Assembly (NCBI GenBank): GCA_044450965.1
Contig: JBIOJO010000012.1
Location: 3,040-67,039 of the forward strand
From: Elusimicrobiota bacterium
GTDB taxonomy: Bacteria; Elusimicrobiota; Elusimicrobia; UBA1565; UBA9628
Direction of reading: 5' to 3'
DNA: 64,000 nucleotides
Shown: positions 1,113 through 35,592 of the stretch, piece after piece
How the letters are laid out: each line of letters starts with the position of its first letter
Numbering within the stretch: the stretch's first letter is position 1
The notes under the pieces: generated by a model
Databases searched by the model: none
Told to the model about the DNA's origin: nothing
What the model saw: only the letters and a program-made list of their open reading frames with translations
Position numbers and translations under genes: made by a program

Positions 1113-1157
1113 TTTGACCCCCAACTAACCTTGTGGTGTGGCGAGGGTCCAAAAAAG

Positions 1158-1295: not shown

Positions 1296-1389
1296 GAAGG
1301 ATGATAGCACGCGGGGGTAGACAAGTCAATGCCTCTCGGCGCTTATCGCGTATCTGCTAATATTGGACCTTAGCCCGGACCACTATCCA

Positions 1390-8455: not shown

Positions 8456-9457
8456 ATGAAGGCAGCCCAAACGACGGCGCGCGGTGCCTTTTTTTTCTGT
8501 CTTCTCGGCGCGCCGTTTTTCATCGGTCCGCGCGCCTCTCTCGCCGCCGGGCCCGGCACTTCGGCGGCCACCTTCCTGGATCTGGGCTTCGGCGCCCGCC
8601 CTCTCGGCTTCGCCGAAGCCTACGTGGCCATGGCCGACGACGTCTCCGCCGTGCATTACAACCCCGCCGGTCTTTCCCTGCCGCAGCCGGCCATGCGCGC
8701 CGCTCCCGGACCGTACGAGATGCTGTTCACGCACACGCTCTACATCCAGGGCATTTCGCTGGATCAGCTGGGCCTGGTGCGGCGCCCCTGGGGGCTGAGC
8801 GTCACCAGCCTTCGGGTCGGCGGCATTGAAGGCCGCACGTTGGAGACCGACACCGCCGCGAACTTCAATGCGTCCGACCTGGCCGTCGGCGTCAGCTACG
8901 GCCGTCAGGTGGGGCCGGTGGGCTTGGGCGCGACGGTGAAGTACATCCATGAGACCATCGCCAACGCCTCCGCCGACGCGTACGCGGCGGACTTCGGCGC
9001 GCTGCATCGCTTCGAAAATTATCCCGTCTCGGTCGGCGCGGATCTGGCGAATTTGGGCACGAAGGTGCGCTTCATCGACCAGGCGGCGCCGCTTCCCCTG
9101 GTGCTGCGGACCGGCGTCACCTACGGCCAGACCAAGAGCTTCCCTCACGCGCTCAGCCTCCAGATCGACGCGCCGCGGGACGGGGCGCCGTTCGTGCGGC
9201 TGGGCGCGGAGTATCAGGGCTTCGGCCCGTTCGCGCTGCGCATCGGCTACCGCACGTTCAGCGGCGGCCAGAAGGACGCGGTGCTGGGCAAGGCGCTGGG
9301 TAGCACGGCGTCGGGCTTCTCCGAATTTTACGGGCTGTTCCTGGGCATGGGCCTGCAGACGAAACTGGGGAACCTGGACTACGCCATCATGCCGTACGGC
9401 GAGCTGGGCTTGGCGCACCGGCTGTCGCTGGCCCTGCGCTTCGGCGGTCCCCATTGA
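8456..9457 (+). CDS. PorV/UPF0164-like outer-membrane beta-barrel protein (paralog 2)
   Basis: Signal peptide, then ATFLDLGFGARPLGFAEAYVAMADDVSAVHYNPAGL, the same N-terminal signature as the 4260-5225 paralog. Sits directly upstream of the fibre-like genes. Confidence 0.7.
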   Translation: MKAAQTTARGAFFFCLLGAPFFIGPRASLAAGPGTSAATFLDLGFGARPLGFAEAYVAMADDVSAVHYNPAGLSLPQPAMRAAPGPYEMLFTHTLYIQGISLDQLGLVRRPWGLSVTSLRVGGIEGRTLETDTAANFNASDLAVGVSYGRQVGPVGLGATVKYIHETIANASADAYAADFGALHRFENYPVSVGADLANLGTKVRFIDQAAPLPLVLRTGVTYGQTKSFPHALSLQIDAPRDGAPFVRLGAEYQGFGPFALRIGYRTFSGGQKDAVLGKALGSTASGFSEFYGLFLGMGLQTKLGNLDYAIMPYGELGLAHRLSLALRFGGPH

Positions 9458-9477
9458 ATCAACATCAAGGAGTCGTC

Positions 9478-10359: not shown

Positions 10360-10399
10360 ACATGATGAACAAGGTTTTCACCGGTCCGTGGGAGAACGT

Positions 10400-16180: not shown

Positions 16181-16218
16181 AGAGATATTGATCTAAGAGC
16201 GTTGACTTCGTGTTTACG

Positions 16219-19200
16219 ATGAAATCGTCGAAGCAGTTGATCGTCCTGGCCGCCCTCGCGGGCGCGCTGGCGGCACCCTGCGTCTGGGCGGCCGGACCGA
16301 AGACCTCCACCAACAGCGTGATCGTGGACGACCTTCTCACCGGCGCCGCCGGAACCGTCCACGCCACCACCGTCGGCGGTTCCGAATTGGATGGCAGCGT
16401 CGGCCAGGTGTCGGAGATCGTGGAGTTGTCCGCGGGCGCCACCGTGGAGGCGGGCTACTTCGCCGCCTTGGTGTCCACGCCGAACTCGCCCAGCTACCTC
16501 CAGGTCAACGGCTCCTCCGTCGCGCTCCAGTGGCTGGACGCCATTCCGGCCAATCCCTCGGGCACGGCCTACGCCCTGGACTTCTCCACGTCGCCCGTGT
16601 TCGGCGGAATATTGGTGTCGACGAACGCCTACGGCCTGTCCGGCATCGTGACCGGGCTGACGGGGAACACCACCTATTTCGGCCGCATCAGCGCGGCGTA
16701 TTCCGAGAGCGACAACTCGACGCCGGTCGGCTTGGGCCAAACGGTCACGCAGGCGCTGGCGCCGTCGTTCGGCGCCTTCTCGGACGTCGCGCCGTTCACG
16801 CTGAAGACCGCGTGGGATTCGTTGGGAAACAACGTCGGCGATCTGAACCCGGCGTGGACGACCTTGACCTCGACCTTGCCCGCCGTGCGCCAGGGGCAGG
16901 CCATGGTCTATTACGGCGGACGGCTGTACGTGTCCGGCGGCGCGGATCCCGCGGCGCAGAGCACGGTGTACACCGCGCCCGTTCTGGCCGACGGGACGGT
17001 GGGCGCGTGGACGACGACGACGCCGCTCCCCGGCATCCGCGAATCGCACGCCATGGCCGCGTGGGCCGGGCGCTTGTACGTGGCGGGCGGCTCCAACGGC
17101 AGCGCCCAGTCCACCGTGTGGTGGGCGCCGATCCGCTCCGACGGAAGCTTGGGAGATTGGAACACGGCCACGCCGTTGCCTTCCGCGCGCACACAGCTGG
17201 CGATGACGGCGTCCGCCGGACGGCTGGTCGTGACCGGGGGACAAAACGGAATTTCCGCGCAGTCCACGGTTTACAGCGCGGCCCTCAACGACGACGGCAC
17301 GATCGGCGCGTGGGCGGCGGCGCCGTCCTTGCCCACGTCCGTCAGCGGCCACGCCATGGCCGTTTCCAGCAATACCATCTACATCGCCGGCGGCGCCAGC
17401 GGCGTCGTGCTCAACACCGTCTGGTGGGCCCCCTTGACCGCGGGCGTTCCCGGCGCCTGGACGGCCACCACCCAGTTGCCGACGACCTTGACCCGGCACG
17501 GTATGGCCGCGTTGAACGGCAAGCTGTACGTGACCGGCGGAAACGACGGCGCGACCGTCCAGAACGCGACCTACGTCGGACAGATCAACCCCGACCAGAC
17601 CATCGCGGGCTGGACCTCAGAGGGTGCCGCCCTGCCCGCCCTGTACCTGCATGCCATGGCCGCGTCCATGGACACCCTCTACGTCTCGGGCGGTTCGAAC
17701 GGGACAAATCCCGTCAACAAGATTTTGAACGTCTCTCTGACGGGCACCCAATCCTTGGCCGAATTGGCCGCCAGCGTTGGATTCGCGCCGATCCTGGCCT
17801 CGTCCACCTGGCGCGCCGGCACGAACTTCGACTTTTCCGGACTGACCCCGAACACCACCTATTTCGGCCGCGTCAGCGCGCGCAACTACGCCGGCGTGCA
17901 GACCGCGCTCCTCCCGCTGGGCTCCACCATCACCTTGGCCGCCGTCCCGACCACGGCCGTCTCCACCTTCACCGACGTGGAGATCGGCTCGGTCACGTTC
18001 CAATGGACCGCGGGCGGCAACCCGGCCGGCACCGAGTTCAACGCCCAGGCGTCCACCGCCAGCGATTTCAGCGGGACTCTGCTGACGGGAAGCTGGCTGA
18101 CGTCCACCACGACAGGCTTCAGCAGCCTGAGCCCGAACACCAGCTACTACCTGCGCGTCCAGGCCCGCAACGCGGCCCACGTCGTCAGCCCCTTCGCCGC
18201 GGTCGGCTCGACGTACACGTTGGCGGTCCCGCCCGCCGGCACCCTCATCACCGCCTCCAACGCCTCCGGCCTCACCCTCACGTGGGGCCCGGCCGCCAAC
18301 CCCGCGGGAACGCTTTTCGAGGCCCAGGTCTCCTCGATGACGACCTTCATCCCGCTCCTCCAATCCAGCGTCGCGGTTTCGTTGAGCGCGACGTTCAGCG
18401 GTCTGATCAGCGCCAGCACGTTCTACGCCCGCGTCCGCGCGCTCAACGGCAACGGCGTCCCCAGCGGCTTCGACGTCACGGCCTCCACCGCGACCGGCCT
18501 GGACTCCGTGGCTCCCGGAATCGCGACGGGCACGTTCGCCTATCCCGGCGCCGCGGCGGACACTTTGGTCGCCGCCTGGGTCGTTCCGGGCGACAACGCC
18601 TACTCCGGGACGTTGTTCGCGGGGACGCAGTTCCTGATTCAATGGAGCACGTCCGACCCCGCGGGAGTGGCGTGGAGCACCGCGTCCGCCCAGGTGTCCC
18701 TGTCCACGGGGCCCATTAATCCGGGAAGCCTGGCCACCGTCGCGGTCTCCGCCCTGCCGGACCGCAAGCAGGTCTTTTTCCGCGAGTGGACCCGCGACCT
18801 GGCGGGCAACTACTCCGTGCCGTCGGCCACCTTCTCCGCCATCACCACCCCGTTCACATACGAGTTCCTGGCGGGCGGCGGAGGCTTCGACGCCGGGACC
18901 TTCCCGTCGCTCGCGACGGACAGGGCGGGCAACCTGCAGGCCGCGTACCGCGGCACGACCGGCACTCAGGAGCTCCAGTACGTGAAGCGGACGGCCGGCG
19001 CGTGGGGCGGGCCGGTCACCGTCGATCCGGGCACGGTCGTGACGAACCCGGTGCTGGCGCTGGACTCCTCGGACAATCCGGTCATCGCCTATTTCGACTC
19101 AAGCGCCACGCAGCTGAAGGTGGCCCGCTTCAGCGGCAGCTGGACCATCAGCGTCATCGAGGCCGGCAACTTCGTGCCCGGCGGCGCGGTGGTGGACGCG

Positions 19201-21444
19201 GCCGGCGCCGTCAACGTCTCCTACTACGACTCCGTCGCCGGCCATCTGAAGTTCGCTCGCTTCACCGGCGTCTCCTGGAGCACCCAGACCGTGGACAACA
19301 CCCCGGCGAACACCGGATCTCAGAGCGCCTTGGCCCTCGATGCGACCCAGCAGGCGTATATTTCCTACTATGACGCCACGAATGCGGCCCTCAAATTCGC
19401 CAGCTCCACGGCCGGAGGCGGCTGGAGCCTCCAGACCGTGGACGCCGGAATCTCTCTGAGCAGCGGCAGCGTCATCGCCGTGGACGGCAACGCCAAGGCG
19501 CATATCGCCTACGCCGACATGACCGGCGGCGCCGTGAAGTACGCCAGCATGACCGCCGCCGGCTGGTCCGTGCGCGTCGTGGAGCCCGGAGCCAATCTGG
19601 GCGGCATGCGCGTCAGCCTGGCGCTGGACGGGGCGGGCGCGGCGAACATCTCCTACGGCGACCGCACGGCGGCGAGCCTCAAGTTCGCGCAGTGGACCGG
19701 GACCGCCTTCAGCACTCAGACCGTGGACTCGGCCGCCGATGAAGGCCTGGAGAGCTCCCTGTCGCTGGACGCCGCGGGGAACGTCCATATCGCCTACCGC
19801 GATTCGACCGACAAGGCCTTCAAGGCCGCGCACTGGACGGGGGCCGGCCTGCCGGGCGCGTTCGGCGGAAACGCCCGCGGCCGGGCCCAGGCCGCGTCCG
19901 CGATGTCGGGCGCCGCGCTCTCGGTCACCAGCATCCAGTGGAGCTGGAACGACAACGCCAACAACGAGCTGGGCTTCCGGCTTTACGGCTCCCTCGTCTC
20001 GACCGGGCCGTTCGTCCTGGTGGCGGACACCGGGACCATCGCGGCGTCGCCGGGCGTGGGCGGCGTCCGGAGCTACACGGAGACGGGCCTGACGTCGGGC
20101 ACCACCTATTACCGCTACGCGGTGGCCGTCGGCACCGGCGGCTTCGCCGCCTCCGGCGTGGCCGCCGCGTTCCCGGCCAACGTTTCGGACACCACCCCGC
20201 CGACGATCGTCAACAACCAGACCGGCGACGCCGTCCTGCGCCGCCAGAACACGGGCACCTACAACGTCAACTTCTTCGACAGCGGCGGCTCGCACCTGTC
20301 GTCTTTCGCGGTCAAGGCTTCGACCATGCCCGGCGGCGTCGGGCCGGACCTGATCGCCTACACGACGGTCGTTTCCGGCCTCAGTTCGGACTCGTACACG
20401 GCGCCGTGGCCCCTGCCCGCGGCCGTCTTCAACGCCCTGCAGGGCGGCGTGACCAATTACATCACCATCAAGGTGGTGGACGGCGCCGGCAACGCGACGA
20501 TCGGCACCGACCTGTTCTACGTCCAGCGCGACACCTCCGTTCCCAGCATCTCCGGCCACGTCGTCGAGGTCTCCAGCGTCGGCATCACGGCCGTCGAGGT
20601 GGACTGCTTCGACGCTTCCGGCGCCCTGCAGGCCACCGCGTTCACCCAGGCCGACGGCAGCGGAACCTACGTGGCCAGCGGCATGCCCCTGGGCACCTAC
20701 CGGGTTCAGGCGACGTGGACGGTCAACGGCGTGGGCAACTCGGTGTCCATCGACAGCATTCCCGTGGACACGACCAGCCTGGACTTCACGCTTCAGCTGA
20801 ATTACAACCTGGCCGCGGTCCAGGGCAGCCTGCAGACGCTCTCGACCAATCCCAGCGGGCCGTCGCTGCTGAGCGTGGGGACCCGCGCGGCGTTCTTCGA
20901 TCCGAAGACCGTGCCCAACCCGACTCTGGCCCGCGTGGAGCTGTACCAGAACAACCGCCAGGTCGGCATGGTCCTGGTCCCGCCCAGCGGTCATTGGATC
21001 ATCCCCAACCTTCTGCCCGGAAAGTACTCCCTGCGCGCCTACAACGGGCTGGACTACACCGAATTCCAGGAGGTGGAGCTGATCGACGGCGAGGTCAAGA
21101 CCATCGGCTTCCTCAGCAGCCCCCTGCCCGACACGCAGGTCTTCGCGTTCCCGAACCCGGCGCGCCGCGCGACCTCGTTCCGGTTCCAGTCGGCGCTGCT
21201 GCCGCTGGACGCGCAGATCCGCGTCTTCGACATCGCCGGCAATCTGGTCAAGGAGCTGACCACCGCGGCGGGGGAGATCGTCATGGCGCCCGGCTCCGGC
21301 GCGGGCGTGTATCACGGCGATTGGGACCTGACCAACTCCCGCGGCCAGGGCGTGGCGTCCGGCGTGTACATCTTCTCGGTCAAGGTCAGCGGCGGCAACA
21401 ACCAGTCGGCTTTGGTCACGAAAAAATTGGCGGTGGTGAAATAG
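16219..21444 (+). CDS. giant secreted Kelch-repeat / Fn3 / beta-propeller-repeat protein with T9SS-type C-terminal sorting domain
   Basis: Signal peptide LIVLAALAGALAAPCVWA. About six Kelch-like blades (GGRLYVSGG, GRLYVAGGSNG, GRLVVTGGQNG, TIYIAGGASG, GKLYVTGGNDG, TLYVSGGSNG). Fn3-like modules (TTYFGRVSARN, SYYLRVQARN). Eight repeats ending ...LKFA/VKYA... consistent with a second propeller. C-terminal AFPNPARRATSFRF...IRVFDIAGNLVKEL...GVYIFSVKV sorting domain. The ORF opens at a GTG at 16210; ATG 16219 is preferred. Confidence 0.8.
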   Translation: MKSSKQLIVLAALAGALAAPCVWAAGPKTSTNSVIVDDLLTGAAGTVHATTVGGSELDGSVGQVSEIVELSAGATVEAGYFAALVSTPNSPSYLQVNGSSVALQWLDAIPANPSGTAYALDFSTSPVFGGILVSTNAYGLSGIVTGLTGNTTYFGRISAAYSESDNSTPVGLGQTVTQALAPSFGAFSDVAPFTLKTAWDSLGNNVGDLNPAWTTLTSTLPAVRQGQAMVYYGGRLYVSGGADPAAQSTVYTAPVLADGTVGAWTTTTPLPGIRESHAMAAWAGRLYVAGGSNGSAQSTVWWAPIRSDGSLGDWNTATPLPSARTQLAMTASAGRLVVTGGQNGISAQSTVYSAALNDDGTIGAWAAAPSLPTSVSGHAMAVSSNTIYIAGGASGVVLNTVWWAPLTAGVPGAWTATTQLPTTLTRHGMAALNGKLYVTGGNDGATVQNATYVGQINPDQTIAGWTSEGAALPALYLHAMAASMDTLYVSGGSNGTNPVNKILNVSLTGTQSLAELAASVGFAPILASSTWRAGTNFDFSGLTPNTTYFGRVSARNYAGVQTALLPLGSTITLAAVPTTAVSTFTDVEIGSVTFQWTAGGNPAGTEFNAQASTASDFSGTLLTGSWLTSTTTGFSSLSPNTSYYLRVQARNAAHVVSPFAAVGSTYTLAVPPAGTLITASNASGLTLTWGPAANPAGTLFEAQVSSMTTFIPLLQSSVAVSLSATFSGLISASTFYARVRALNGNGVPSGFDVTASTATGLDSVAPGIATGTFAYPGAAADTLVAAWVVPGDNAYSGTLFAGTQFLIQWSTSDPAGVAWSTASAQVSLSTGPINPGSLATVAVSALPDRKQVFFREWTRDLAGNYSVPSATFSAITTPFTYEFLAGGGGFDAGTFPSLATDRAGNLQAAYRGTTGTQELQYVKRTAGAWGGPVTVDPGTVVTNPVLALDSSDNPVIAYFDSSATQLKVARFSGSWTISVIEAGNFVPGGAVVDAAGAVNVSYYDSVAGHLKFARFTGVSWSTQTVDNTPANTGSQSALALDATQQAYISYYDATNAALKFASSTAGGGWSLQTVDAGISLSSGSVIAVDGNAKAHIAYADMTGGAVKYASMTAAGWSVRVVEPGANLGGMRVSLALDGAGAANISYGDRTAASLKFAQWTGTAFSTQTVDSAADEGLESSLSLDAAGNVHIAYRDSTDKAFKAAHWTGAGLPGAFGGNARGRAQAASAMSGAALSVTSIQWSWNDNANNELGFRLYGSLVSTGPFVLVADTGTIAASPGVGGVRSYTETGLTSGTTYYRYAVAVGTGGFAASGVAAAFPANVSDTTPPTIVNNQTGDAVLRRQNTGTYNVNFFDSGGSHLSSFAVKASTMPGGVGPDLIAYTTVVSGLSSDSYTAPWPLPAAVFNALQGGVTNYITIKVVDGAGNATIGTDLFYVQRDTSVPSISGHVVEVSSVGITAVEVDCFDASGALQATAFTQADGSGTYVASGMPLGTYRVQATWTVNGVGNSVSIDSIPVDTTSLDFTLQLNYNLAAVQGSLQTLSTNPSGPSLLSVGTRAAFFDPKTVPNPTLARVELYQNNRQVGMVLVPPSGHWIIPNLLPGKYSLRAYNGLDYTEFQEVELIDGEVKTIGFLSSPLPDTQVFAFPNPARRATSFRFQSALLPLDAQIRVFDIAGNLVKELTTAAGEIVMAPGSGAGVYHGDWDLTNSRGQGVASGVYIFSVKVSGGNNQSALVTKKLAVVK

Positions 21445-21445
21445 C

Positions 21446-23224
21446 ATGAGAATCCTGATGGCGGCGGCGCTGGCGGCGCTCCTGGCTCCCGCGGCGGGGG
21501 CGGGCCTGCTGAGTCCCGGAAGCGTGGCGGTTCTGGACGCCAACTCCGCGCCCCGGACCACTTTTTCCAACAACGAGCGCATCACCTTCCAGCAGCGGGT
21601 CTTCAACGGCGTGGCCAGCCCCAACCGCGTCTCGTTCACCTTCATCGTGCTGTCGCCGTCGGGCGCCAACGTGTTCCAGATCGCCGGCAACGCGGTGCCC
21701 GGCTCCGTGGGCAACGCCGCGACCCAGCTCTCCGGCTTCCCGATCGCCAAGTTCTACACCGGCCCCGGGACCTACACGCTCCAGGCGCTGGCGTCCCTGG
21801 ACGGGCAGGTCGTCTCCCAGCAGGCCACCTTCATCATCTCTTCGCCCAACATCCTGCTGCTGTATCCGCCCAACGGCGCGCAGAACGTGGCCGACGTCCC
21901 GCTCACGTTCCGCTGGGTCTCCAGCGGCGGCTCCACCTACCGCCTCACGGTCGGGGACAACCCGTCCTTCTTCAACGCGCTGTTCGCCCAGCAGACGGGC
22001 GGCGCCGAGACCTTCCTCAGCTACCCGCTCCACCCGTCCGATCAGCGCCTGATCCTGTCCGCCGGCCAGATCTATTACTGGAAAGTCGAGGCGCTGGACG
22101 GCAACGGCCAGGTGGTGGGCGCCAGCAGCGTGCCGAACTCCTTCACGGTGCAGACCGCGGCTTTGGGCCGGGACATGGCGGTGACCGACCTTTCCGTGCA
22201 GGGCGGGCAGGACCTCCAGGGCAACATCCCGTTCAAGGTCACCGTCGCCAATCAGGGCGGCACCGCGCAGGCCAACGTTCCCCTGCGCTTCAGCGTCGGA
22301 GGCCTGGCCGCGGTGGGGACTCCCGTGAGCATGGCCATGATCGGACCGGGGGAGACGCGCGACTACGCCTTCTCGGCGCCGCTGCCGCCCGGCCAGACGC
22401 AGAGCCTGGGGATCGCCTGCGTCGACTTCTCCGACGACAACCTGACCAACAACTGCAAGACGCTGCAGATCACCCAGGCCTCCGCCTCCGGGGGAACGAC
22501 GAATTTCACCACCAACGTTTCCGCCGATCAGGTCTGGCAGCAGATCCAGGATCTGCTGCGCCAGCAGGGCATGGACCTCAGCGAGTACAACCTGGTCGGC
22601 ATGGAGGGCCAGCTCAGCGCGGACGACCTGAAGTCGCTGCTGGCGTCCCTGCGCACCGGCGCCGCGGACGTCTCCCTCAGCGGCCCGACCTTGGGCGGCG
22701 GCGCGGCGGCGATCGTTCCGGCCGTCAGCACGGCCTCCTTCAACGCGCCCGCGAGCGCGCCCCGGCAGGACGTCGCTCCCGCGGCGCCCAACGGCGTGGT
22801 CGCCGACGAGGAAGAGACGGCGCCTCTGGGCTCCGAGTGGGAGGGCTTCTCCGCGCCGATGTCGTCGCGCCCCTCGGGGCAGGTGATCTCCGACGAGAAG
22901 ACCTGGAAGAAGATCTGGCGCCTGGTGCAGACCGGCCGCGTGCCGAAGGTGAACTTCAACGAGCACATCGTCGTCGCGGTCTTCGCCGGAAAGGGCGAGA
23001 AGGCCGACCACGCCGAGATCCAGGCCGTGGAGATGAGCCTGTCCGGGCTGGTGGTCCGCTACCAGTTCGTCCGCTACGCGACGTTCAACGTGAACTCGTC
23101 GCCCCGCGCCGCGGTTCCCTACCGGATGCGCGTGGTTCCGCGCACGACCGTTCCCGTGCAGTTCGATCTTGTCGAGGAAAAAGAAGACGTTCCGGCAAAA
23201 CCCAAGTCGCAGGAGAGGAAATAA
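21446..23224 (+). CDS. secreted protein with CARDB-like repeats and C-terminal PrcB-like domain
   Basis: Signal peptide MRILMAAALAALLAPAAGAG. C-terminal KTWKKIWRLVQTGRVPKVNFNEHIVVAVFAG resembles the PrcB C-terminal domain. The start is 2 nt after the upstream stop. Confidence 0.6.
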   Translation: MRILMAAALAALLAPAAGAGLLSPGSVAVLDANSAPRTTFSNNERITFQQRVFNGVASPNRVSFTFIVLSPSGANVFQIAGNAVPGSVGNAATQLSGFPIAKFYTGPGTYTLQALASLDGQVVSQQATFIISSPNILLLYPPNGAQNVADVPLTFRWVSSGGSTYRLTVGDNPSFFNALFAQQTGGAETFLSYPLHPSDQRLILSAGQIYYWKVEALDGNGQVVGASSVPNSFTVQTAALGRDMAVTDLSVQGGQDLQGNIPFKVTVANQGGTAQANVPLRFSVGGLAAVGTPVSMAMIGPGETRDYAFSAPLPPGQTQSLGIACVDFSDDNLTNNCKTLQITQASASGGTTNFTTNVSADQVWQQIQDLLRQQGMDLSEYNLVGMEGQLSADDLKSLLASLRTGAADVSLSGPTLGGGAAAIVPAVSTASFNAPASAPRQDVAPAAPNGVVADEEETAPLGSEWEGFSAPMSSRPSGQVISDEKTWKKIWRLVQTGRVPKVNFNEHIVVAVFAGKGEKADHAEIQAVEMSLSGLVVRYQFVRYATFNVNSSPRAAVPYRMRVVPRTTVPVQFDLVEEKEDVPAKPKSQERK

Positions 23225-23940
23225 TGCTCAAACGCATCGGTCGGCTGGCGGCGTTGGCGTTGCTGTCGTGCCTTGTCGTCGCGCCCGCGCGCGCGGCCGG
23301 AGAGGTCGTGGCCGGAGTCGTCATCGTGCTGAAGGGAGCGCCCGGCATCAAGCGGCGCGGCGCGTCCGCCGTGAAGCCCTTGAAGATGAGCCAGTACGTC
23401 AACGAGGGCGACGAGCTCACCACCAAGGCGGGGGAGTTCGCCTCGATCGCCTTCATCGGCGGCGCGGAAGTCCGCATCAGCGAGTCGTCGACGTTCGTGG
23501 TCGAGGCGGGCGGGGGGACCAAGCCCACCCAGCTCTTCACCACGATCGGCAAGGCGTGGACGCGGCTGCTCCAGGGCCACTCCGGCATCAACATCCGCAC
23601 GCCCACCGCGGTGGCGGCCGTGCGCGGCACCGAGGCCGACGTGGAGTCCGGCGACCACACGACCGTCAAGGTCTACGAAGGCTTCGTGGACGTGTACAAC
23701 GACCACGGCAAGCAGGCCCTGACCGCCGGCCAGATGACGCACGTGGCCAGCGCCCAGGCCGCCCCCGAGCCGCCGAAGACGATGACGGCGGCGGACGTGC
23801 AGCACTGGCAGGACGCGCTCAAAGGAAAAGACGTGGAGAAGCAGATCCAGCGCCTGCAGAAGGAAGCCGACCGGCGCCGCAGCCTGGAGCTCAAGACGAA
23901 GGACGGCAAGAAGATCAAGATCAACCTTGAGAAAAAATGA
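23224..23940 (+). CDS. secreted FecR-domain protein
   Basis: Signal peptide LAALALLSCLVVAPARAAG. FecR-like beta-rich region (GDELTTKAGEFASIAFIGGAEVRISESSTFVV...IRTPTAVAAVRGTEADV). Lys-rich C-terminal tail. Confidence 0.65.
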   Translation: MLKRIGRLAALALLSCLVVAPARAAGEVVAGVVIVLKGAPGIKRRGASAVKPLKMSQYVNEGDELTTKAGEFASIAFIGGAEVRISESSTFVVEAGGGTKPTQLFTTIGKAWTRLLQGHSGINIRTPTAVAAVRGTEADVESGDHTTVKVYEGFVDVYNDHGKQALTAGQMTHVASAQAAPEPPKTMTAADVQHWQDALKGKDVEKQIQRLQKEADRRRSLELKTKDGKKIKINLEKK

Positions 23941-23962: not shown

Positions 23963-25894
23963 GTGATCATTCGCTCTCGCCGCATCGCGGCGCTCGCCGC
24001 GCTGCTGTGCGCTTACGCGGCCCTCCGGCCGACGTACGCCGCCGCATCGGATCAGGCCAGCCTGCAGTTCACGGTGCCGGCTCCTGATCCGGTGCAGGCG
24101 GGCGAGACGCTGTCCATCCAGGCCCTGGCCGTCAACACCGGCTCGAGCCAATGGGCGGCGGGCAGCTATTACTGGGTGGCGGAAGTCTACGACGTCGAGT
24201 ACCGCTTCCTGACGCGCACCGAGCAGATCTCGCCCACGGACAACGTGCCGCCGGGCGGGGTGGCCGCCATCACTCTGCCGTTCTCCGTTCCGGCCACCGC
24301 GACGGGACGGCGCTTCTACCGCGTGTACCTGGTGAAAGACAACCGCCAGCTCCTGGAATCCGACTACAAGGCGTTCCAGATCCTGGAAAAGGCCATCCCG
24401 CCGCCGCCGGAGTCCGTGGACTACCGCGTGGAAGGAAACGTGACCGTCAGCCTGAAGGATTCCAGCATCGGCAAGTGGCGCCAGGTCAACGGCTCGACCG
24501 CGGTCAACATGGTGGGCAAGCTCAAGGACGCGTCGTACCTGCTCAACGCCAACCTGATCCACGCCCCCGGAAAGGTGGTCGACCCGTACAGCATCCTTTT
24601 CAGCTACTACGCTCCTTGGGGCCGCATCTACGCCGGCGACATCGCCCCGACGTATTCCCAGCTGTCGGTGAACGGCCTGGGCCTGCGCGGATTGATGCTG
24701 GAGCAGAACAAGGGCATCTTCGATTGGTCCGTCCTGGGCGGGCAAAGCGTCACGTCCCAGGCGGGGACGGCCGCGATCAACGGCCGCTTCGCGCGCTCGA
24801 TCTACGCGGGCCGCTTCGGCGTTTCGCTGCCGGCCAACGTCAAGGCCGGCGTCAACGCCTTCCAGAGCGCCGACGAGGTCGGGTCGCTGAGCAGCGACCC
24901 GAAGTCCAACAACTTCCGCGGACCGGCGCTGGCCGCGCAGAAGAACTCGGGCATGGGCCTGAACCTGTCCTGGGCGCCCGGGGCGGGCGTGACCGTCCTG
25001 GCGGACTACCAGAAGAACACCTACACGCCGGACACGACTTTGCCGGCCGTCTCGGACACGGCCCGGCGCCTGGAGCTCCGCTGGGACACGCGGATGACCA
25101 AGCTGAAGGTCTATACGCAGCGCACGGGCGCGCACTTCATCGCCTTCGGCGCGCCGTCCGTCATCGGCGACCGCAACACCATGGACGCCAGCCTGGGCTT
25201 CTTCCCGGCGTCGTGGTACACCCTGAACCTTTCCGGCGACCAGTACACGGACAACCTGGCCAACGACCCGAACAAGCTCACGACCACGCAGCGGATCCTG
25301 AACGTCGGCAACGCGTTCCACCTGCCGACGGGAACGGATTTCAACCTGGGGGGTTCTTTGAACACGGCCAAGGGCAAGCAGGCCTCGGCCCTGGACAACA
25401 AGACCGTCACGGAAAGCGTCGGGCTGACTCAGGCGATCAAGAAGCACACCGTGTCCCTGAACATCCAGAACTCCCAGTTCCGCGATCTCAACAAGCTGTC
25501 CCACGACCTGGACACGCAGACCTTGGGCTTGAACACGAACCTGTCGCTGCCGCACAACTCGATCGGCTCCTTCGGCGTGACGACGACGCAGGCCAGCGAC
25601 AAGATCGACGGCAGCAAGCGCAAGAGCCAGTCCACCTCGGCCAGCTATTCACGTCCGCTGTGGCCCTCGTGGACCGGACAGTTCTTCGGCTCCCTGACCG
25701 CCACCAAGAACACGTCCCCGCTGTTCCCGTCCGACTCGTCGACGCTCTCGCTCAATTCCGAGCTGACCTGGACGGTCGAGAAGCAGATCAACGTGGCGTT
25801 CGGCGTGGGCTACAACAAGACGCAGGACAAGCTGTCCAGCGCCAACAGCACGAAGGAGATCGTCCTCTCCACGCGCTACTCGTACTCCTTTTAG
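23963..25894 (+). CDS. large outer-membrane beta-barrel protein (hypothetical)
   Basis: Signal peptide, alternating amphipathic beta-strand composition, Gly/Asn/Ser/Thr-rich, C-terminal ...YSYSF (aromatic terminal residue typical of OMPs). GTG start. Confidence 0.55.
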   Translation: MIIRSRRIAALAALLCAYAALRPTYAAASDQASLQFTVPAPDPVQAGETLSIQALAVNTGSSQWAAGSYYWVAEVYDVEYRFLTRTEQISPTDNVPPGGVAAITLPFSVPATATGRRFYRVYLVKDNRQLLESDYKAFQILEKAIPPPPESVDYRVEGNVTVSLKDSSIGKWRQVNGSTAVNMVGKLKDASYLLNANLIHAPGKVVDPYSILFSYYAPWGRIYAGDIAPTYSQLSVNGLGLRGLMLEQNKGIFDWSVLGGQSVTSQAGTAAINGRFARSIYAGRFGVSLPANVKAGVNAFQSADEVGSLSSDPKSNNFRGPALAAQKNSGMGLNLSWAPGAGVTVLADYQKNTYTPDTTLPAVSDTARRLELRWDTRMTKLKVYTQRTGAHFIAFGAPSVIGDRNTMDASLGFFPASWYTLNLSGDQYTDNLANDPNKLTTTQRILNVGNAFHLPTGTDFNLGGSLNTAKGKQASALDNKTVTESVGLTQAIKKHTVSLNIQNSQFRDLNKLSHDLDTQTLGLNTNLSLPHNSIGSFGVTTTQASDKIDGSKRKSQSTSASYSRPLWPSWTGQFFGSLTATKNTSPLFPSDSSTLSLNSELTWTVEKQINVAFGVGYNKTQDKLSSANSTKEIVLSTRYSYSF

Positions 25895-26817
25895 TTCGCT
25901 TCGGCGGGAGCCGGGCGCGAGGACAGCTTGCGCAGGAACTTCTTGAGCTGCGGATCCTCGGGAGAGAGGGCCAGGGCTTTCTGCCAGGCCTCGCGCGCCT
26001 TCGGGTGCAGGCCGAGAGAGTAGTACGCCGAGCCCAGCCGCTTCAAGGCGACCAGGTCCGCCGGCTCCAAGGCGAGGGCCTCGTTGAGCGTGTCGATCGC
26101 CTGGTGGTAGCGCGCCCCGTACATGTGATCCAGAGCGACGGAGCGCTTGTACTCGAGCAGGGTCATGCCCGGGGTGACCAGGTCGGTGTTGACGAACTCC
26201 GGATGGCGCGACAGGAACCAGTCGAGCAGGCGCTTGATGCGCGTATCGACGGGCTCCAGCTCGCGGGCGTAGCGCAGGCCGTCGTAGGCCAGCTTGTAGT
26301 CCTGGTTCTGGCCGACGGCGGCGTTGACGGAGAGGGTGGTCAGCCTCCAGGCCTTCGATTTGTCCGGAGCCTCCGGCACGATCAGGACGATGTCCTCGAG
26401 CGAGGACTGGAGCGCGGAGGCGAACGGGGTGCGGTTTCCGTTTTCCAGGAGGGTTTCCAACCCGGCCAGCGCCGAACGGTATCGGCCGGTCCTCACGTTG
26501 GCCAGGATCTCGGTCAGGCGCTTCGCGTTCGTCTTCTCGACGTCGTTCTGGACCTCGCGGATCATGTCGCGGGCGGTTTTCTGGTCGGGGTCGAGGCGGA
26601 GGATGTCGTCCCAGACCTGGATGGCCCGGCCGTAGTCGCCCGACTTGTAGAAGGCGAAGGCCTGGTCGTAGTACTTCTGCAGAACGACGGCCTTCGATTC
26701 CTGCGGTGCCTCCGCGGCGCGCGCGCATATCGGATGAACGGAAAGGATCGCCGCGAAGGCACCCAGGCGCAAAAAACGAACGGAGAGAAGGGCAACGGCG
26801 ACGGACTCGCCGTACAC
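25891..26817 (-). CDS. periplasmic TPR-repeat protein (last gene of the stator-rotor-like operon)
   Basis: Probable GTG start at 26817. The 534-aa ORF on the track extends upstream in another frame over the MotB2 gene and is not credible there. TPR motifs (AFAFYKSGDYGRAIQVWDDILRLDPDQ, YYSLGLHPKAREAWQKALALSPEDP). Confidence 0.65.
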   Translation of the reverse strand: MYGESVAVALLSVRFLRLGAFAAILSVHPICARAAEAPQESKAVVLQKYYDQAFAFYKSGDYGRAIQVWDDILRLDPDQKTARDMIREVQNDVEKTNAKRLTEILANVRTGRYRSALAGLETLLENGNRTPFASALQSSLEDIVLIVPEAPDKSKAWRLTTLSVNAAVGQNQDYKLAYDGLRYARELEPVDTRIKRLLDWFLSRHPEFVNTDLVTPGMTLLEYKRSVALDHMYGARYHQAIDTLNEALALEPADLVALKRLGSAYYSLGLHPKAREAWQKALALSPEDPQLKKFLRKLSSRPAPAEAN

Positions 26818-26879: not shown

Positions 26880-27524
26880 TTAGCTGTCTTTCTTGACCTC
26901 GCGCACGATGCTGATCTCGATGCGGCGGTTGCGCGCGCGTCCTTCCGGGGTCAGGTTCGTGTCCACGGGACGCATCTCCCCGTAGCCGCGGGCGTCGAAG
27001 CGCTCGGGAGAAAGCCCGCGCTCGACGAAGAATTGGCCGATGGCGAAGGCCCGGGCCGCCGACAGTTCCCAGTTGTTGCGGAGGCGGCTGCGCAGCAGGG
27101 GCTTGTCGTCGGTGTGACCGGAGACGAGGATGGGGTTGGGGATGCCCGCGAACAGCTTGGCCAGCGGCTCCAGGACCTTGCCGGCGTCGGGATTGAGGGT
27201 CGCGGAGCCGGGGGCGAAAAGAACCGGCTCCGGCAGCAGGAGATGGATGTGCCGGGAGGTCACGCGCAGCCCGAAGTCGCGAAGGGCCAGCTGGTCCATC
27301 TGCTGCTTGACGTTGACGGCCAGGTCGGTCTCGTCGGCCCGGACGCGGGCGAAGTCGGAGCCCGCGTCCATCTCCTTCTGCATATGGGCGACGGCGCGCT
27401 GGTACTCGGGGGGCGTCTGCGTGTAGTTGTACGCGAACAGCGCCAGGAAAAGGATCACCATGGTGGACATCAAGTCCGCGTAGGGAACCATCCACAGGCC
27501 GGTGAGATCGTGCTTCTTACTCAT
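26880..27524 (-). CDS. motB: MotB/OmpA-family stator protein, paralog 2
   Basis: Single N-terminal TM with the conserved proton-channel Asp (WMVPYADLMSTMVILFLALF). C-terminal OmpA-like peptidoglycan-binding domain (ILVSGHTDDKPL...NWELSAARA...RNRRIEISIV). Confidence 0.8.
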   Translation of the reverse strand: MSKKHDLTGLWMVPYADLMSTMVILFLALFAYNYTQTPPEYQRAVAHMQKEMDAGSDFARVRADETDLAVNVKQQMDQLALRDFGLRVTSRHIHLLLPEPVLFAPGSATLNPDAGKVLEPLAKLFAGIPNPILVSGHTDDKPLLRSRLRNNWELSAARAFAIGQFFVERGLSPERFDARGYGEMRPVDTNLTPEGRARNRRIEISIVREVKKDS

Positions 27525-28200
27525 CGGCGGCGGCTCCTCCGCGGAGGATGACGATTTCGACGCGGCGGTTGCGGCCGCGGCCGCCGCCTTCGTTGGGCGC
27601 CAGCGGGTGGTAGGGGCCGTAGCCGGCCGCGATCATGCGCGCGGGGGGGACGCCCTCCCGGGTCAGCAGCTCGATGACCGAGGCGGCCCGGGCCACGGAG
27701 AGCTCCCAGTTCGTCTTGTAGGGCCCGGACACGACGGGAACGTCGTCGGTGTGCCCTTCCACCAGCACGTCGTTGGGAATCTGCTTGAGCACCCCCGCCA
27801 GCAGGCTCAGGGTCTTGCCGGCGTCGGCGTTCAGGCCGGCCGAGGCGCTGGGAAACAGCAGTTGGTTGCGCAGGCGCACGCGGATGGTCCGCTCCGTCAC
27901 GTCGATGTCGGCGGAACTCTTCAGCCGCGAGCTCTGCATGAGCCCCAGAAGGGCCTCCGCCGCCTGCTTTTCCTTGAATTCCCGGATCAGCGCGTCGGCC
28001 TTCGCCTGCTGGTTGTCGATGAGCTGGGAGGCCTCGAACGCGCGCAGCCACTCGGCGCGGGTCTTGGGATTCTGCAAAGTGAAGGAATACATGACCAGGA
28101 AGAACAGCATCAGGTTGGTCATCAGGTCGCACAGGACGACCAGCCAAAGCGGGTTCTCCTCCGCTTGCGCGCGCGTCACGCGGTGGAGGAACGGCATCAT
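27517..28200 (-). CDS. motB: MotB/OmpA-family stator protein, paralog 1
   Basis: TM with conserved Asp (LWLVVLCDLMTNLMLFFLVMY). OmpA-like domain (VLVEGHTDDVPV...NWELSVARAASV...RNRRVEIVIL). Overlaps the MotA stop by 4 nt. Confidence 0.85.
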   Translation of the reverse strand: MMPFLHRVTRAQAEENPLWLVVLCDLMTNLMLFFLVMYSFTLQNPKTRAEWLRAFEASQLIDNQQAKADALIREFKEKQAAEALLGLMQSSRLKSSADIDVTERTIRVRLRNQLLFPSASAGLNADAGKTLSLLAGVLKQIPNDVLVEGHTDDVPVVSGPYKTNWELSVARAASVIELLTREGVPPARMIAAGYGPYHPLAPNEGGGRGRNRRVEIVILRGGAAADE

Positions 28201-28988: not shown

Positions 28989-30404
28989 CTAGGCCTCCTG
29001 CGGGACGGCATCGGAGGGCCGGACGTCGGGCTCCGGGGATTTCTTGCGCAGGACGATGCGGCCCTCGCGGACCAGCTGCGCGAGGGCGGCCAGCACGGGC
29101 TGGCGCGCCGCTTCCAAGGCCTCCGGCGTGGGATCGGAGGAGAGCTCGATCTCCTGCGTCAGCCACTCGCGGGTGCCGGTGGCCAGCTTGGGAAGGACGT
29201 TCAGGCGGAGCACGGCGGAGGACTTCAGCAGCACCGCCAGGAGCTTCGCCGGGACGCGGCGGGACAGGAGTTTGATCTCCGCGGGCTCGAGCGCGGCGAT
29301 GTCCTCGATGAAGACGATGCGCCGGCTCACGTTCTCCGCGATCTCGGGATCGTCGCCGCGGAGCGTCAGGAGCAGGTCGCTTTGGATGTCGGCGGGGAGG
29401 GTCTCCAGCAGCTCGACCAGCTTGTCCTCGCCGCCGATCATGTAGTCGATCCTCTGGCGGACCGACTCCTCCAGGGGACGGACCTGGCTTTCGACCAGCT
29501 CGTTCACGCGGCTGAGCAAGGAGACGACCTGGCGGCGCGCGTCCGGCTCCAGCGCGGCCAGCACCTTGCCCGCGACGTCGGGCGGCAGGTATTGGACGAC
29601 GGTGGCCGCGACTTCCTCGGTGGAGCCGCGGAGAAGATGGATCAGCTTGGGCAGGTCGCCGCGATCGAGAAAGGAGAACGGCAGGCCGGCCCTTCCCTCG
29701 GCGGCGTGCGGGGCGGGCCCCGATCCGGGCGCGCCCGCCGCCGCGGCGGCTTCGCGTTCCGCCGCGGGAGCGCGCTCCTCTCCGCCCTTGCGCATCAGGG
29801 CGGCGGCGCTCAGGTCGCGCAGATTGGTGATCAGCGGCCCGAGGAACTTTCTCTGGAGCACGGCCAGCGCGATGACGGCGAACAGCAGCCACAGCGCCGA
29901 GCTTCCCAGGGTGAAGTATCGCTGGGTGTCGGGCGCGGGGCGCGGCTTGTGAAATTTTATCTTCTCGACGTTGAGGCTGTCGCCGCGGCCGGCGGAGATG
30001 CCCAGTATTCCGGCCGCCACCTTCTTGACCAGCTCCACGTCCTTGGCCTCCGTGTCCTGGTCGACGATGAGCGTCGCCGAGATCCGGTTGACCATGGGCA
30101 TGCTCATCCCGGCGGCGCCGGCCATCGGATCGGCCGCCTGGGCATCCTTGGGGGGGACTCCGGGCATGACCTCGGAGTCGTCGTGCTCCGTTTCCGATTT
30201 CAGCGCCACGTTGACGATCACGATCAGGTCGTCGGTGCCGAGGGCTTCGCGCAGAACCGCCTGAAGCCTCTTCTCGAGGGAGCTCTCGAGCGCGACCTTG
30301 GCCTCCAGTTCCCGGGAGGCCTCCTTGGGCGTCACGGCCGCCGCGGCGGCCCCGGCGAGGGCCAGCAGAACGGCGCCGCAACAAAGGTTGAGTTTGTAAG
30401 ACAT
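28989..30404 (-). CDS. fusion protein: FliF/SctJ(YscJ)-like ring-building periplasmic domains + TM + FliG C-terminal (torque-helix) domain
   Basis: Signal peptide. Two RBM-like segments (LEKRLQAVLREALGTDDLIVIVNVALK and ISATLIVDQDTEAKDVELVKKVAAGILGI). TM helix ALWLLFAVIALAVLQ. The cytoplasmic C-terminal ~200 aa align to FliG middle/C-terminal: GGEDKLVELLETLPADIQSDLLLTLRGDDPEIAENVSRRIVFIEDIAALEPAEIKLLSRRV...LRLNVLPKLATGTREWLTQEIE vs FliG GGVDLAAEIL...EIRNLMFVFEDLVKLDDRSIQRVLREV...IFSNMSKRAAEMLREDLE. Confidence 0.7.
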   Translation of the reverse strand: MSYKLNLCCGAVLLALAGAAAAAVTPKEASRELEAKVALESSLEKRLQAVLREALGTDDLIVIVNVALKSETEHDDSEVMPGVPPKDAQAADPMAGAAGMSMPMVNRISATLIVDQDTEAKDVELVKKVAAGILGISAGRGDSLNVEKIKFHKPRPAPDTQRYFTLGSSALWLLFAVIALAVLQRKFLGPLITNLRDLSAAALMRKGGEERAPAAEREAAAAAGAPGSGPAPHAAEGRAGLPFSFLDRGDLPKLIHLLRGSTEEVAATVVQYLPPDVAGKVLAALEPDARRQVVSLLSRVNELVESQVRPLEESVRQRIDYMIGGEDKLVELLETLPADIQSDLLLTLRGDDPEIAENVSRRIVFIEDIAALEPAEIKLLSRRVPAKLLAVLLKSSAVLRLNVLPKLATGTREWLTQEIELSSDPTPEALEAARQPVLAALAQLVREGRIVLRKKSPEPDVRPSDAVPQEA

Positions 30405-31787: not shown

Positions 31788-31810
31788 CGGCATTTATATA
31801 AAATCCGGAG

Positions 31811-35524: not shown

Positions 35525-35592
35525 GCCGCCACCTTCTAAAGGAAGGCGCCGTGGCCGCACGTCGTGGTGGCATTTACGGGAGACAACAAGAG

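Follow-up and report, generated by a model that had tools for sequence, protein, structure and literature searches.

The rotor and the stator of the flagellum are regarded as meaningful only inside the flagellum, and studies of flagellar evolution have long asked how a rotor-stator pair could exist before the type III export core or separately from it. This question is raised by a stretch of 64,000 nucleotides from an Elusimicrobiota bacterium (GenBank assembly GCA_044450965.1, contig JBIOJO010000012.1, positions 3,040 to 67,039 of the forward strand; hereafter the window), in which a 471-residue protein encoded at 28989-30404 resembles both the ring protein FliF and the switch protein FliG. 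A preliminary description, made from the sequence, had presented it as a candidate minimal rotor in a non-flagellar setting, composed of FliF-type ring-building motifs (RBMs), one transmembrane (TM) helix and the middle and C-terminal domains of FliG, and comparison by hidden Markov models, profiles and folds bore this out. The protein was given the working name FG, for FliF(RBM3)-TM-FliG(M+C) fusion protein. We are highly confident that FG is a natural fusion of the S-ring building block of FliF (RBM3, a truncated beta-collar and TM2) with the FliG middle and C-terminal domains, standing in a non-flagellar partnership with a stator. In a preprint on magnetotactic Elusimicrobiota (bioRxiv 10.1101/2022.07.08.499144), only few genomes of this phylum are described with a full flagellar gene set, and most free-living members possess motAB and fliG despite having no structural flagellar genes, a combination whose role is called unclear there. 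The genome NORP122 of that preprint corresponds to one of the loci analyzed here (L024).

The open reading frame (ORF) of FG is real, as had been proposed. It runs from ATG to TAG on the minus strand and its third-position GC content (GC3) of 0.90 is typical for genuine genes of this 67% GC window. All four peptide stretches quoted in the preliminary description were found in the translation (residues 43-69, 108-136, 363-380 and 402-420), together with a signal-like N-terminus (hydrophobic residues 7-25), predicted to be a signal peptide or a membrane anchor, and one TM helix (residues 165-183), which is the single internal TM segment by hydropathy. NCBI lists an identical protein, named 'FliG C-terminal domain-containing protein [Elusimicrobiota bacterium]', from a 79.9-kb contig of a metagenome-assembled genome. 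To arrange the elements of the protein, an AlphaFold2 monomer model was constructed from a 24-sequence family alignment (mean predicted local distance difference test score, pLDDT, 76.6). The model is composed of an N-terminal hydrophobic helix (2-18), alpha1 (26-54), beta1 (59-68), a disordered loop (73-101), beta2 (103-114), alpha2 (119-133), beta3 (142-148) and a long membrane helix (159-204), followed by a disordered linker (205-245) and a confident all-helical domain (247-445).

The similarity of the helical half to FliG goes far beyond chance. The Pfam models FliG_C (PF01706) and FliG_M (PF14841) matched residues 348-452 with 51.2 bits (cut-off 23.3) and residues 254-320 with 29.5 bits (cut-off 25), respectively. 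The family profile aligned to the middle and C-terminal domains of Thermotoga maritima FliG (1lkv) with an E-value of 2e-34, and FliG middle/C-terminal structures (1lkv) were also the top Foldseek match of the FG model (E 6e-10), so that the alignment to FliG-MC claimed earlier holds by all of these measures. The NCBIfam fliG model (TIGR00207) matched residues 243-454 on its positions 112-330 with 44.2 bits, far from the cut-off of 226.7. The FliG_M domain of FG opens with PFSF, as in T. maritima FliG. The Gly-Gly linker is conserved as G324 (127/132) and G325 (125/132); these and all following conservation counts out of 132 refer to the full-length family representatives. In the hydrophobic hinge, IVFI replaces MFxF. 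FliG_N is missing from FG: the cytoplasmic part begins at about residue 241 and aligns from about residue 121 of E. coli FliG, and the sole FliG_N match reached 17 bits, under the cut-off and overlapping the M domain. The FliM-binding EHPQR motif is also not kept, as the aligned residues (S261, T262, E263, E264 ... L296) are variable across the family.

The charged ridge named in the preliminary description was recovered in part. Equivalents of two E. coli FliG residues are kept, K264 as K394 (Lys or Arg in 105/132) and D289 as E418 (Glu in 116/132). The other three positions differ: R281 is replaced by the near-invariant G410 (Gly in 120/132), D288 by Q417 (Gln in 85 and Glu in 46 of the 132), and the equivalent of R297 is not conserved in the family.

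The periplasmic half was found to be of the FliF type. In divergent relatives of 545-674 aa, the complete YscJ_FliF_C model (PF08345, positions 1-147) was matched above threshold with 27.5-44.5 bits, and this anchors the FliF assignment for the family as a whole. Foldseek against the PDB returned chains of the FliF MS-ring, RBM3 and S-ring (8zds, 6sd3, 8zdt, 8z4g and others) with E-values of 2e-4 to 1e-3 and probability 1.0, and the injectisome protein PrgK ranked after these FliF chains with an E-value of only about 0.1. When the family profile was compared with all PDB sequences, Vibrio FliF 418-491, representing the second half of RBM3 and TM2, was found with an E-value of 0.0035. The profile alignment to E. 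coli FliF is collinear, with family positions 41-75 on FliF 239-273 and 97-231 on 368-514, and takes in TM2 and the FliF motif RGDSLNV (R140-G141-D142-S-L-N-V in FG). The NCBIfam fliF model (TIGR00206) placed residues 29-79 on its positions 234-285, far under the equivalog cut-off.

Two RBM-like segments had been reported in this half. Their similarity to RBMs is real, if weaker in the case of FG itself; the two segments are, however, the alpha1-beta1 and beta2-alpha2-beta3 halves of one motif. According to the element order in the AlphaFold2 model, the periplasmic part of FG is one RBM3-type alpha-beta-beta-alpha-beta unit split by an insertion, in PF08345 territory. The earlier assignment to PF01514, the RBM1/RBM2 region of SctJ homology, did not stand, since FG has no match to PF01514 and its signal peptide is separated from RBM3 by only about 25 residues. 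The insertion is a shrunken beta-collar. The loop has about 34 aa in FG and 26-80 aa in the family, against about 110 aa in E. coli FliF; the full collar insertion is wanting in FG and just an (L/V)PG(V)P motif is left, the PGVP of FG aligning with 'PGGVPG' of E. coli FliF (306-311). This motif is highly conserved (P81 in 132/132, G82 in 131/132 and P84 in 120/132), and the R140-G141-D142 triplet is kept in more than 120 of the 132. Between the two conserved halves of FG, a disordered linker stands where the C-terminal peptide of FliF and FliG_N would be. Since FliG_N, EHPQR, RBM1/RBM2 and a full collar were each looked for in FG and not found, FG lies outside FliF and FliG in the equivalog sense; it clearly derives from both or is sister to them.

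A tabulation of the gene neighbourhood added a feature which the preliminary description had not mentioned and which strengthens its claim: a complete stator, MotA followed by two MotB paralogues, is encoded immediately downstream of FG. The motA gene starts 6 nt after FG, motA and motB1 overlap by 4 nt, and motB1 and motB2 overlap by 8 nt. MotA matched the flagellar MotA, PomA and MotP models end to end with 199, 187 and 173 bits, and ExbB merely with an E-value of 0.008. The MotB paralogues scored 140-156 bits with the flagellar MotD/MotB models and exceeded the Pfam cut-offs for MotB_plug (24 bits) and OmpA (27.2 bits). Across 23 loci, on which all stator counts of MotA are based, position 90 of MotA is Arg in 19 and Lys in 2, position 91 is always Arg or Lys, and P173 and P222 are present in 23/23; Asp32 of MotB is found in 38/38 copies of both paralogues. 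Flagellar-type stators (FIT clade) are defined by a four-helix TM A subunit whose torque interface is cytoplasmic, together with a B subunit that combines a plug with an OmpA-type domain (PMC12505986), and these defining features are present in MotA and both MotBs of the FG operon. On alignment, the charge pair R90-D289 is kept on both partners, and the positions of E98 in MotA and R281 in FliG are altered on both. This pattern is compatible with a co-adapted interface but is no proof of it. The order of the two MotB types is fixed across loci (L007-L025), a 'NPLWLVVLxDMMTNL' type preceding a 'LWMVPYADLMS' type after a single motA. Such a fixed order suggests that MotB1 and MotB2 form a heterodimer or else that two kinds of stator use the one MotA in common, and in the former case a single MotA pentamer might enclose a MotB axle made of two different subunits.

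The FG family is large and essentially confined to one phylum. A word-indexed homologue search returned 31 relatives, all from Elusimicrobiota where named, and this is a large underestimate of the family, as an exhaustive profile search over 1.84 billion representatives gave 331 clusters (50% identity, E<=1e-30). Among the best 150 clusters of that search, nearly all span the whole profile. Both RBM halves, FliG_M and FliG_C are present in 132 of 172 family sequences analyzed, so that at least 132 full-length 50%-identity clusters exist, essentially all from Elusimicrobiota. In their source records relatives are annotated as 'flagellar motor switch protein FliG'. The FG gene is carried by 24 GTDB species representatives, many of them from groundwater; 22 are labelled Elusimicrobia or Elusimicrobiota, one 'bacterium' and one 'Nitrospirota'. 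The last is an 'uncultured Nitrospirota' bin whose short contig (CAYYSS010000025.1, L027) possesses MotA, MotB and a TPR gene with a partial FG at the contig end, representing either a binning error or an occurrence of the module outside Elusimicrobiota. The PGVP, RGD, PFSF and Gly-Gly motifs as well as G410 and E418 are near-invariant in the family, and the alignment shows these specific motifs to be under strong purifying conservation. The divergent members of 545-674 aa, one of which is MFA5859241.1 from Elusimicrobiota, have a collar loop of up to 80 aa. Some of them (P0140, P0151, P0160, P0169, P0135 and P0150) possess two or three cytoplasmic TPR repeats behind FliG_C, in the position where flagellar FliG would face FliM. 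A connection of these repeats to the TPR protein encoded in the FG operon was considered and rejected: the operon TPR proteins all have signal peptides, and the fused repeats are cytoplasmic with no membrane segment before them.

To understand the genomic context of FG, genes were called in 27 loci and clustered by BLASTP, and the gene order was compared. The order FG, MotA, MotB, MotB, TPR was found in essentially every sufficiently long contig. A block in convergent orientation, consisting of the outer-membrane protein U643, a FecR-domain protein, the secreted protein U590 and a protein of about 770 aa or larger, follows in about 16-17 of the loci that extend far enough. The genes beyond the FG and U643 blocks vary from locus to locus. 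The neighbours of about 770 aa and the 1744-aa protein of the window, which holds the position taken in other loci by the c8_768 family with its C-terminal sorting domain (CTD), possess a type A sorting domain of the T9SS (type IX secretion system; TIGR04183) with 30-38 bits against a cut-off of 23.

Four divergent loci (L029-L032, GC 34-49%) show a rearranged order. L032 contains a CHU_C cargo gene, a PorP/SprF-like barrel, a histidine kinase, a response regulator and a 522-aa protein, followed by FG, MotA, MotB and MotB. In L031 a 14,454-aa protein and a 614-aa protein precede FG-TPR, an 800-aa coiled-coil protein, FlbD, MotA and two MotB-like genes. L029 and L030 possess PorV genes and CHU_C/Por_Secre_tail cargo nearby and a 514-521-aa protein directly upstream of FG. 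In all four loci the protein directly upstream of FG was found to be a fusion of an N-terminal PorV-like barrel with C-terminal TPR repeats. The barrel half is homologous to the PorV genes of the window (E 1e-15 to 1e-25), and the TPR half to the TPR protein of the operon (E 1e-13 to 2e-28, 34% identity over 190 aa); the fusion therefore ties the periplasmic TPR protein of the operon to a PorV-type outer-membrane barrel. PorP_SprF and CHU_C are on record in L029 and L032, and T9SS-type cargo and barrels recur beside FG.

Some further genes of the divergent loci deserve mention. FG is followed by a Lys/Glu-rich coiled-coil protein of 800-830 aa (13138-16145 in L029; 11938-14810 in L031), after which a Roadblock/LC7 (MglB-like) protein is encoded in L029 and FlbD, just before motA, in L031. 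The coiled-coil, Roadblock/LC7 and FlbD proteins are possible cytoplasmic partners or polarity factors. The 14,454-residue product of L031 (1-7823), with no Pfam match on record and encoded immediately upstream of the PorV-TPR and FG genes, is a candidate giant surface filament or adhesin.

The best overall explanation of these data, towards which we lean with modest conviction, is a flagellum-independent stator-rotor module in which FG and the co-transcribed MotA/MotB/MotB are coupled to a surface system of PorV barrels and CTD cargo. In the flagellum, RBM3 of FliF forms an S-ring of 33-34 subunits. Because FliF RBM3 builds this ring, and because engineered FliF-FliG fusions assemble rings and rotate, the RBM3 domains of FG would be expected to oligomerise to a ring at the inner membrane, on its periplasmic side. 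The covalent link seen in the architecture would stand in for the handshake of the FliF C-terminus with FliG_N and would place a ring of FliG-MC domains under the membrane without FliM or FliN. Peptidoglycan-anchored MotA5MotB2 units, possibly containing MotB1/MotB2 heterodimers, would pass ions through the conserved Asp, and R90/R91 of MotA would push the FliG_C helix at K394, G410, Q/E417 and E418. Force from the periplasmic face would then be handed on, probably through the PGVP loop, to the operon TPR protein and from there to the surface module of U643, FecR-domain protein, CARDB protein, PorV/PorP-family barrels and giant T9SS-type cargo. The likely output would be energised secretion or attachment, or gliding-type surface movement, of giant adhesin-like proteins. 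That the stators actually turn an FG ring is slightly favoured, and the coupling of FG and its stator to the PorV/CTD-cargo module appears evenly poised. It can be proposed tentatively that Elusimicrobiota hold a previously unrecognised envelope machine, in which a minimal FG rotor turned by MotA/MotB1/MotB2 and coupled through the TPR protein to PorV-like barrels secretes, anchors or moves giant T9SS-type adhesins without type III export, rod, hook or filament.

Several observations weigh against this explanation. Its weakest step is the transmission, as there is no rod or axle to carry rotation of an inner-membrane ring across the peptidoglycan. The ring, its stoichiometry and its rotation are what we infer from a monomer model and from homology, and the link to the outer membrane and the cargo is drawn from one phylum, in which the gene neighbourhood is conserved and a single domain fusion was seen. 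The YscJ_FliF_C match of FG itself (residues 104-151) reached 20.4 bits, under the cut-off of 23.8. Three of the five classical charges of the torque helix are not conserved in the FG family (R281 to Gly, D288 mostly to Gln, R297 lost). In the flagellar motor, E98 of MotA is the partner of R281 of FliG. This position, occupied by Ala, Ser, Thr or Val, is acidic in only 1/23 loci, with Glu or Asp two residues downstream in 18/23. With the torque-helix charges and E98 altered, the interface is unlike that of the flagellum and might be used for some other contact. In favour of a non-flagellar setting, the window and six loci with Pfam annotation showed no further structural gene of the flagellum, the whole genomes not being scanned; within the same limits no core component of the T9SS (GldL/M, GldK/N, SprA/Sov, PorU) was seen. 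For the latter reason the module is not filed as a T9SS.

The same observations bear on the alternatives, of which the one that survives best takes FG as a non-rotating, stator-dependent force transducer or scaffold. A ring or smaller oligomer of FG would only dock MotAB in the membrane, and the ion flow, instead of turning a ring continuously, would drive conformational work that is handed to periplasmic partners, similar to the Ton and Tol systems. The module without axle, rod or bushing and the altered charge pattern of the torque helix would suit such a transducer, as would the FecR-domain protein and the large outer-membrane barrel next door, which recall TonB-dependent signalling pairs; the stator, on the other hand, is of the flagellar type, with a 4-TM MotA, the cytoplasmic R90 interface and a MotB with plug and OmpA domain, and not ExbBD/TolQR, no TonB- or TolA-like partner was found in the operon, and FliG-MC with its Gly-Gly hinge is kept and highly conserved. 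Taken together, a transducer of this kind is considered unlikely, though it has to be reckoned with.

Far less probable is that FG is part of a true flagellum, being either a divergent FliF/FliG or a second paralogous rotor, with the remaining flagellar genes elsewhere in the genome. The absence of RBM1/RBM2, which house the export gate, of most of the beta-collar, of FliG_N and of EHPQR speaks against it, as do the NCBIfam fliG score of 44.2 against 226.7 and the lack of any flagellar structural gene in the window and the annotated loci, where fliM, fliN, flhA and others were not found. The annotation of relatives as FliG, the flagellar type of MotAB and the few Elusimicrobiota with full flagellar sets in the available text of the preprint (10.1101/2022.07.08.499144) would agree with a flagellum, and so would the small FlbD gene preceding motA in L031, the only flagellum-associated extra in the loci; the same text, however, has motAB and fliG without structural flagellar genes in most free-living members.

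A Zorya-like anti-phage system with a ZorAB-like pair is scarcely credible. Both MotB paralogues match the PADLOC ZorB models with 56-78 bits, but these scores fall below the 140-156 bits of flagellar MotD/MotB, the 261-aa MotA has no long ZorA tail, and PADLOC gave no match for MotA (ZorA), FG, TPR, U643, the FecR-like protein or U590, so that a generic similarity of ZorB to MotB is all that is left and the reading is effectively refuted. Equally remote is a decaying, functionless relic of a lost flagellum, or an MgtE N-terminal domain mis-read as FliG: although the host phylum is largely aflagellate in the available text of the preprint and MgtE_N (PF03448) gives a weak match, the relic is effectively refuted by hundreds of diverged, intact full-length copies with near-invariant motifs in a conserved operon, and MgtE_N by its 20.4 bits over 43 residues (cut-off 25.9) against 51 bits for FliG_C, FliG_M also exceeding its own cut-off, and 2e-34 for the FliG-MC profile. 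An MgtE-N-type C-terminus and an N-terminus unrelated to RBM folds had been named in the preliminary description as outcomes that would overturn it; the first is answered by these scores, and the N-terminus matches RBM folds.

The positions of FG, its parts and the neighbouring genes in the window are given in Table 1.

Table 1. Coordinates and supporting evidence of FG, its segments and the neighbouring genes in the window
Feature	Position	Strand	Evidence
FG, FliF(RBM3)-TM-FliG(M+C) fusion protein	28989..30404	minus	ATG-to-TAG ORF; Pfam/NCBIfam; AlphaFold2; Foldseek; profile against PDB
FG aa 1-24, predicted signal peptide or N-terminal membrane anchor, Ala-rich, AxA-like end	30333..30404	minus	hydrophobic aa 7-25; family-wide
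FG aa 26-68, RBM3 first half (alpha1-beta1)	30201..30329	minus	AlphaFold2; E. coli FliF 239-273; NCBIfam fliF 234-285
FG aa 69-102, disordered loop at beta-collar position, P81-G82-V83-P84	30099..30200	minus	pLDDT <50; family alignment
FG aa 103-148, RBM3 second half (beta2-alpha2-beta3), RGDSLNV	29961..30098	minus	AlphaFold2; YscJ_FliF_C 96-147; E. coli FliF 368-~440
FG aa 165-183, TM helix, FliF TM2 equivalent	29856..29912	minus	hydropathy; model helix 159-204; collinear with E. coli FliF TM2
FG aa 205-240, disordered Ala/Pro/Glu-rich cytoplasmic linker	29685..29792	minus	pLDDT <50; variable and gapped in family alignment
FG aa 241-320, FliG middle domain, starts with invariant PFSF	29445..29684	minus	FliG_M 29.5 bits; 1lkv alignment
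FG aa 348-452, FliG C-terminal domain, preceded by Gly-Gly linker G324-G325 and 'IVFI' hinge	29049..29363	minus	FliG_C 51.2 bits
FG aa 402-420, torque-helix equivalent with G410, Q417, E418	29145..29201	minus	mapped to E. coli FliG R281/D288/D289
Flagellar-type MotA, 261 aa	28197..28982	minus	Pfam MotA_ExbB; NCBIfam MotA/PomA; R90, P173, P222
MotB paralogue 1, 227 aa, plug, TM with Asp, OmpA domain	27517..28200	minus	MotB_plug 33.9 bits; OmpA 58 bits
MotB paralogue 2, 214 aa, plug, TM with Asp, OmpA domain	26880..27524	minus	MotB_plug 32.1 bits; OmpA 70.7 bits
Periplasmic TPR protein, ~308 aa, signal peptide, GTG start after GGAGG	25891..26817	minus	Pfam TPR; signal peptides in all orthologues
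U643 outer-membrane protein, signal peptide, Ig-like domain, ~26-strand beta-barrel, end ...YSYSF	23963..25894	plus	
FecR-domain periplasmic protein, 238 aa, signal peptide	23224..23940	plus	tblastn 56% identity to L006 member; PF04773 on orthologues
U590 secreted CARDB/Ig-domain protein, 592 aa	21446..23224	plus	CARDB in 8/9 members; signal peptide; synteny
1744-aa Kelch/fn3 surface protein, T9SS type A C-terminal sorting domain	16210..21444	plus	TIGR04183 30.5 bits (cut-off 23), aa 1647-1701
1930-aa adhesin-like protein, weak YadA-head repeat	10388..16180	plus	position only; module membership uncertain
PorV/PorQ-family outer-membrane barrel	8456..9457	plus	NF033709 121 bits (cut-off 90); homologous to barrel half of PorV-TPR fusions
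Second PorV-family barrel	4155..5225	plus	Pfam PorV 34.2 bits (cut-off 27); ORF start approximate

Apart from these features, the window contains some genes which adjoin the module or lie at its borders. A secreted protein of 301 aa (9454-10359, plus strand) shows a weak match to the N-domain of a Bdellovibrio 'mosaic adhesive trimer'. Together with the 1930-aa protein it is situated between the PorV/PorQ gene and the CTD-bearing giant, and by sequence both look like fibre or adhesin components. Directly before the second PorV barrel, a cargo-like protein of 966 aa with NHL repeats, fn3 and a FlgD_ig-like C-terminal domain is encoded (1363-4263, plus strand); as its ORF overlaps that of the barrel by about 100 nt, one of the two starts is mis-set. 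At the left edge of the window, where the GC content falls to 0.615, a tyrosine recombinase of the phage integrase family (144-1124, minus strand, 118.7 bits) may mark a mobile element boundary.

On the other side of FG, a histidine-kinase ORF (30983-32422, minus strand, 479 aa) overlaps an OmpR-type response regulator (31811-32518, plus strand). The kinase domains lie in the C-terminal 220 aa of this ORF, so the true kinase probably has about 270 aa and starts near 31786, divergent from the regulator. Single-domain receiver proteins (cluster c7_145) adjoin the module in 8 loci. A stop-free ORF of 2808 codons (35551-43977, plus strand, GC3 0.93) shows a weak M50-peptidase-like stretch at residues 430-459 and a ClpB-like double AAA+ region at about residues 1400-2050 (AAA_2 215 bits, ClpB_D2-small), and represents either an AAA+ protein of exceptional size or a read-through of several genes.

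The conserved operon of FG has consequences for how rotors and stators are viewed. In a phylum that mostly lacks flagella, hundreds of lineages have kept a compact, strongly conserved rotor-like protein along with a full stator of the flagellar type, both tied to outer-membrane barrels and giant surface proteins, which bears on whether FIT-type stators are restricted to flagella. FG is a naturally minimised rotor candidate, with a subunit of about 470 aa and neither FliM/FliN nor FliG_N, and is suited to studying ring assembly and stator engagement. The module is also a candidate for the machine by which uncultured Elusimicrobiota of groundwater and soil, magnetotactic ones among them, move or secrete. 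If the stator-rotor explanation is true, it would be a third way in which surface motility or secretion is powered by a rotary ion motor, beside flagella and the GldLM-driven T9SS, and could be either an extant example of a rotor-stator stage before the flagellum or an exaptation after flagellar loss.

Among the known systems, FG stands nearest to flagellar FliF and FliG of Salmonella and E. coli (6SD3, 8ZDS, 8UMD, 1LKV), with which it shares, on the FliF side, the RBM3 fold, an RGDSLNV-like motif and TM2 and, on the FliG side, FliG_M, the Gly-Gly linker, a hydrophobic hinge and FliG_C, and the adjacent MotA/MotB share R90, P173, P222 and D32 with the flagellar motor. It differs from them as one polypeptide with no RBM1/RBM2, FliF C-terminal peptide, FliG_N or EHPQR, with a collar reduced from about 110 to about 34 residues, with the R281 and R297 equivalents lost, and with no genes for type III secretion, rod, hook or filament nearby. 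A covalent join of FliF and FliG is also known from engineered and spontaneous fusions of Salmonella and from Vibrio FliFG (PMC10941966; PMC11481574; PDB 8Z4D). Engineered fusions, including a deletion-fusion, assemble rings and rotate (PMC4768692; PMC10941966; PDB 8Z4D); the Salmonella fusions go back to Francis 1992 and Thomas 2001 (both cited in PMC4768692), and the deletion-fusion without the FliF-C/FliG-N interface still assembles and rotates. These constructs were made in the laboratory from full-length flagellar genes and operate in a complete flagellum, whereas FG is natural, widespread, far shorter and placed in a non-flagellar gene context.

The architecture of FG had been called unusual. 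It is so, but not unprecedented, as a natural FliF-FliG fusion is on record in Chlamydiaceae: the CT719 family of about 330 aa, with an RBM2-like domain, an unassigned RBM-like domain and a FliG M-like domain only (Bergeron 2016, PMC4768692). The chlamydial fusion resembles FG in its occurrence in bacteria without flagella, its shortened periplasmic region and its order of signal peptide, RBM(s), TM and FliG-like domain. By its published description it lacks the FliG_C torque domain, no MotAB is reported beside it and it is discussed with regard to the injectisome, while FG possesses RBM3, FliG_M and FliG_C beside a stator. The orphan motAB and fliG of free-living Elusimicrobiota (10.1101/2022.07.08.499144) are the same genes from the same phylum as the FG loci; in the available text of that preprint the protein is taken as FliG by KEGG-type annotation, and a FliF-RBM3 fusion, a two-MotB/TPR operon, a PorV-TPR fusion or a CTD-cargo block are not mentioned. 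In the full-text literature searched, which leaves most subscription journals outside, the RBM3-TM-FliG_MC architecture, the MotA/two-MotB/TPR operon, the PorV-TPR fusion and the T9SS-cargo link were not described, and FG and its module thus appear to be undescribed so far.

The module as a whole finds its closest functional parallel in the T9SS and gliding motor GldLM (PorLM) of Bacteroidota, which works with PorV, PorP/SprF and CTD cargo (PMC8986121, PMC12239597). Here U643, the FecR-domain protein and U590 have no detectable T9SS counterpart, and MotAB and a FliF/FliG-derived ring take the place of GldLM, with no GldK/N, SprA or PorU seen in the loci. Both systems possess an ion-driven inner-membrane motor of the 5:2 type that is tied genomically to PorV/PorP barrels, TPR proteins and type A/B CTD cargo. 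On this comparison the FG module would be a functional analogue of the GldLM/PorLM-driven T9SS, made from flagellar motor parts.

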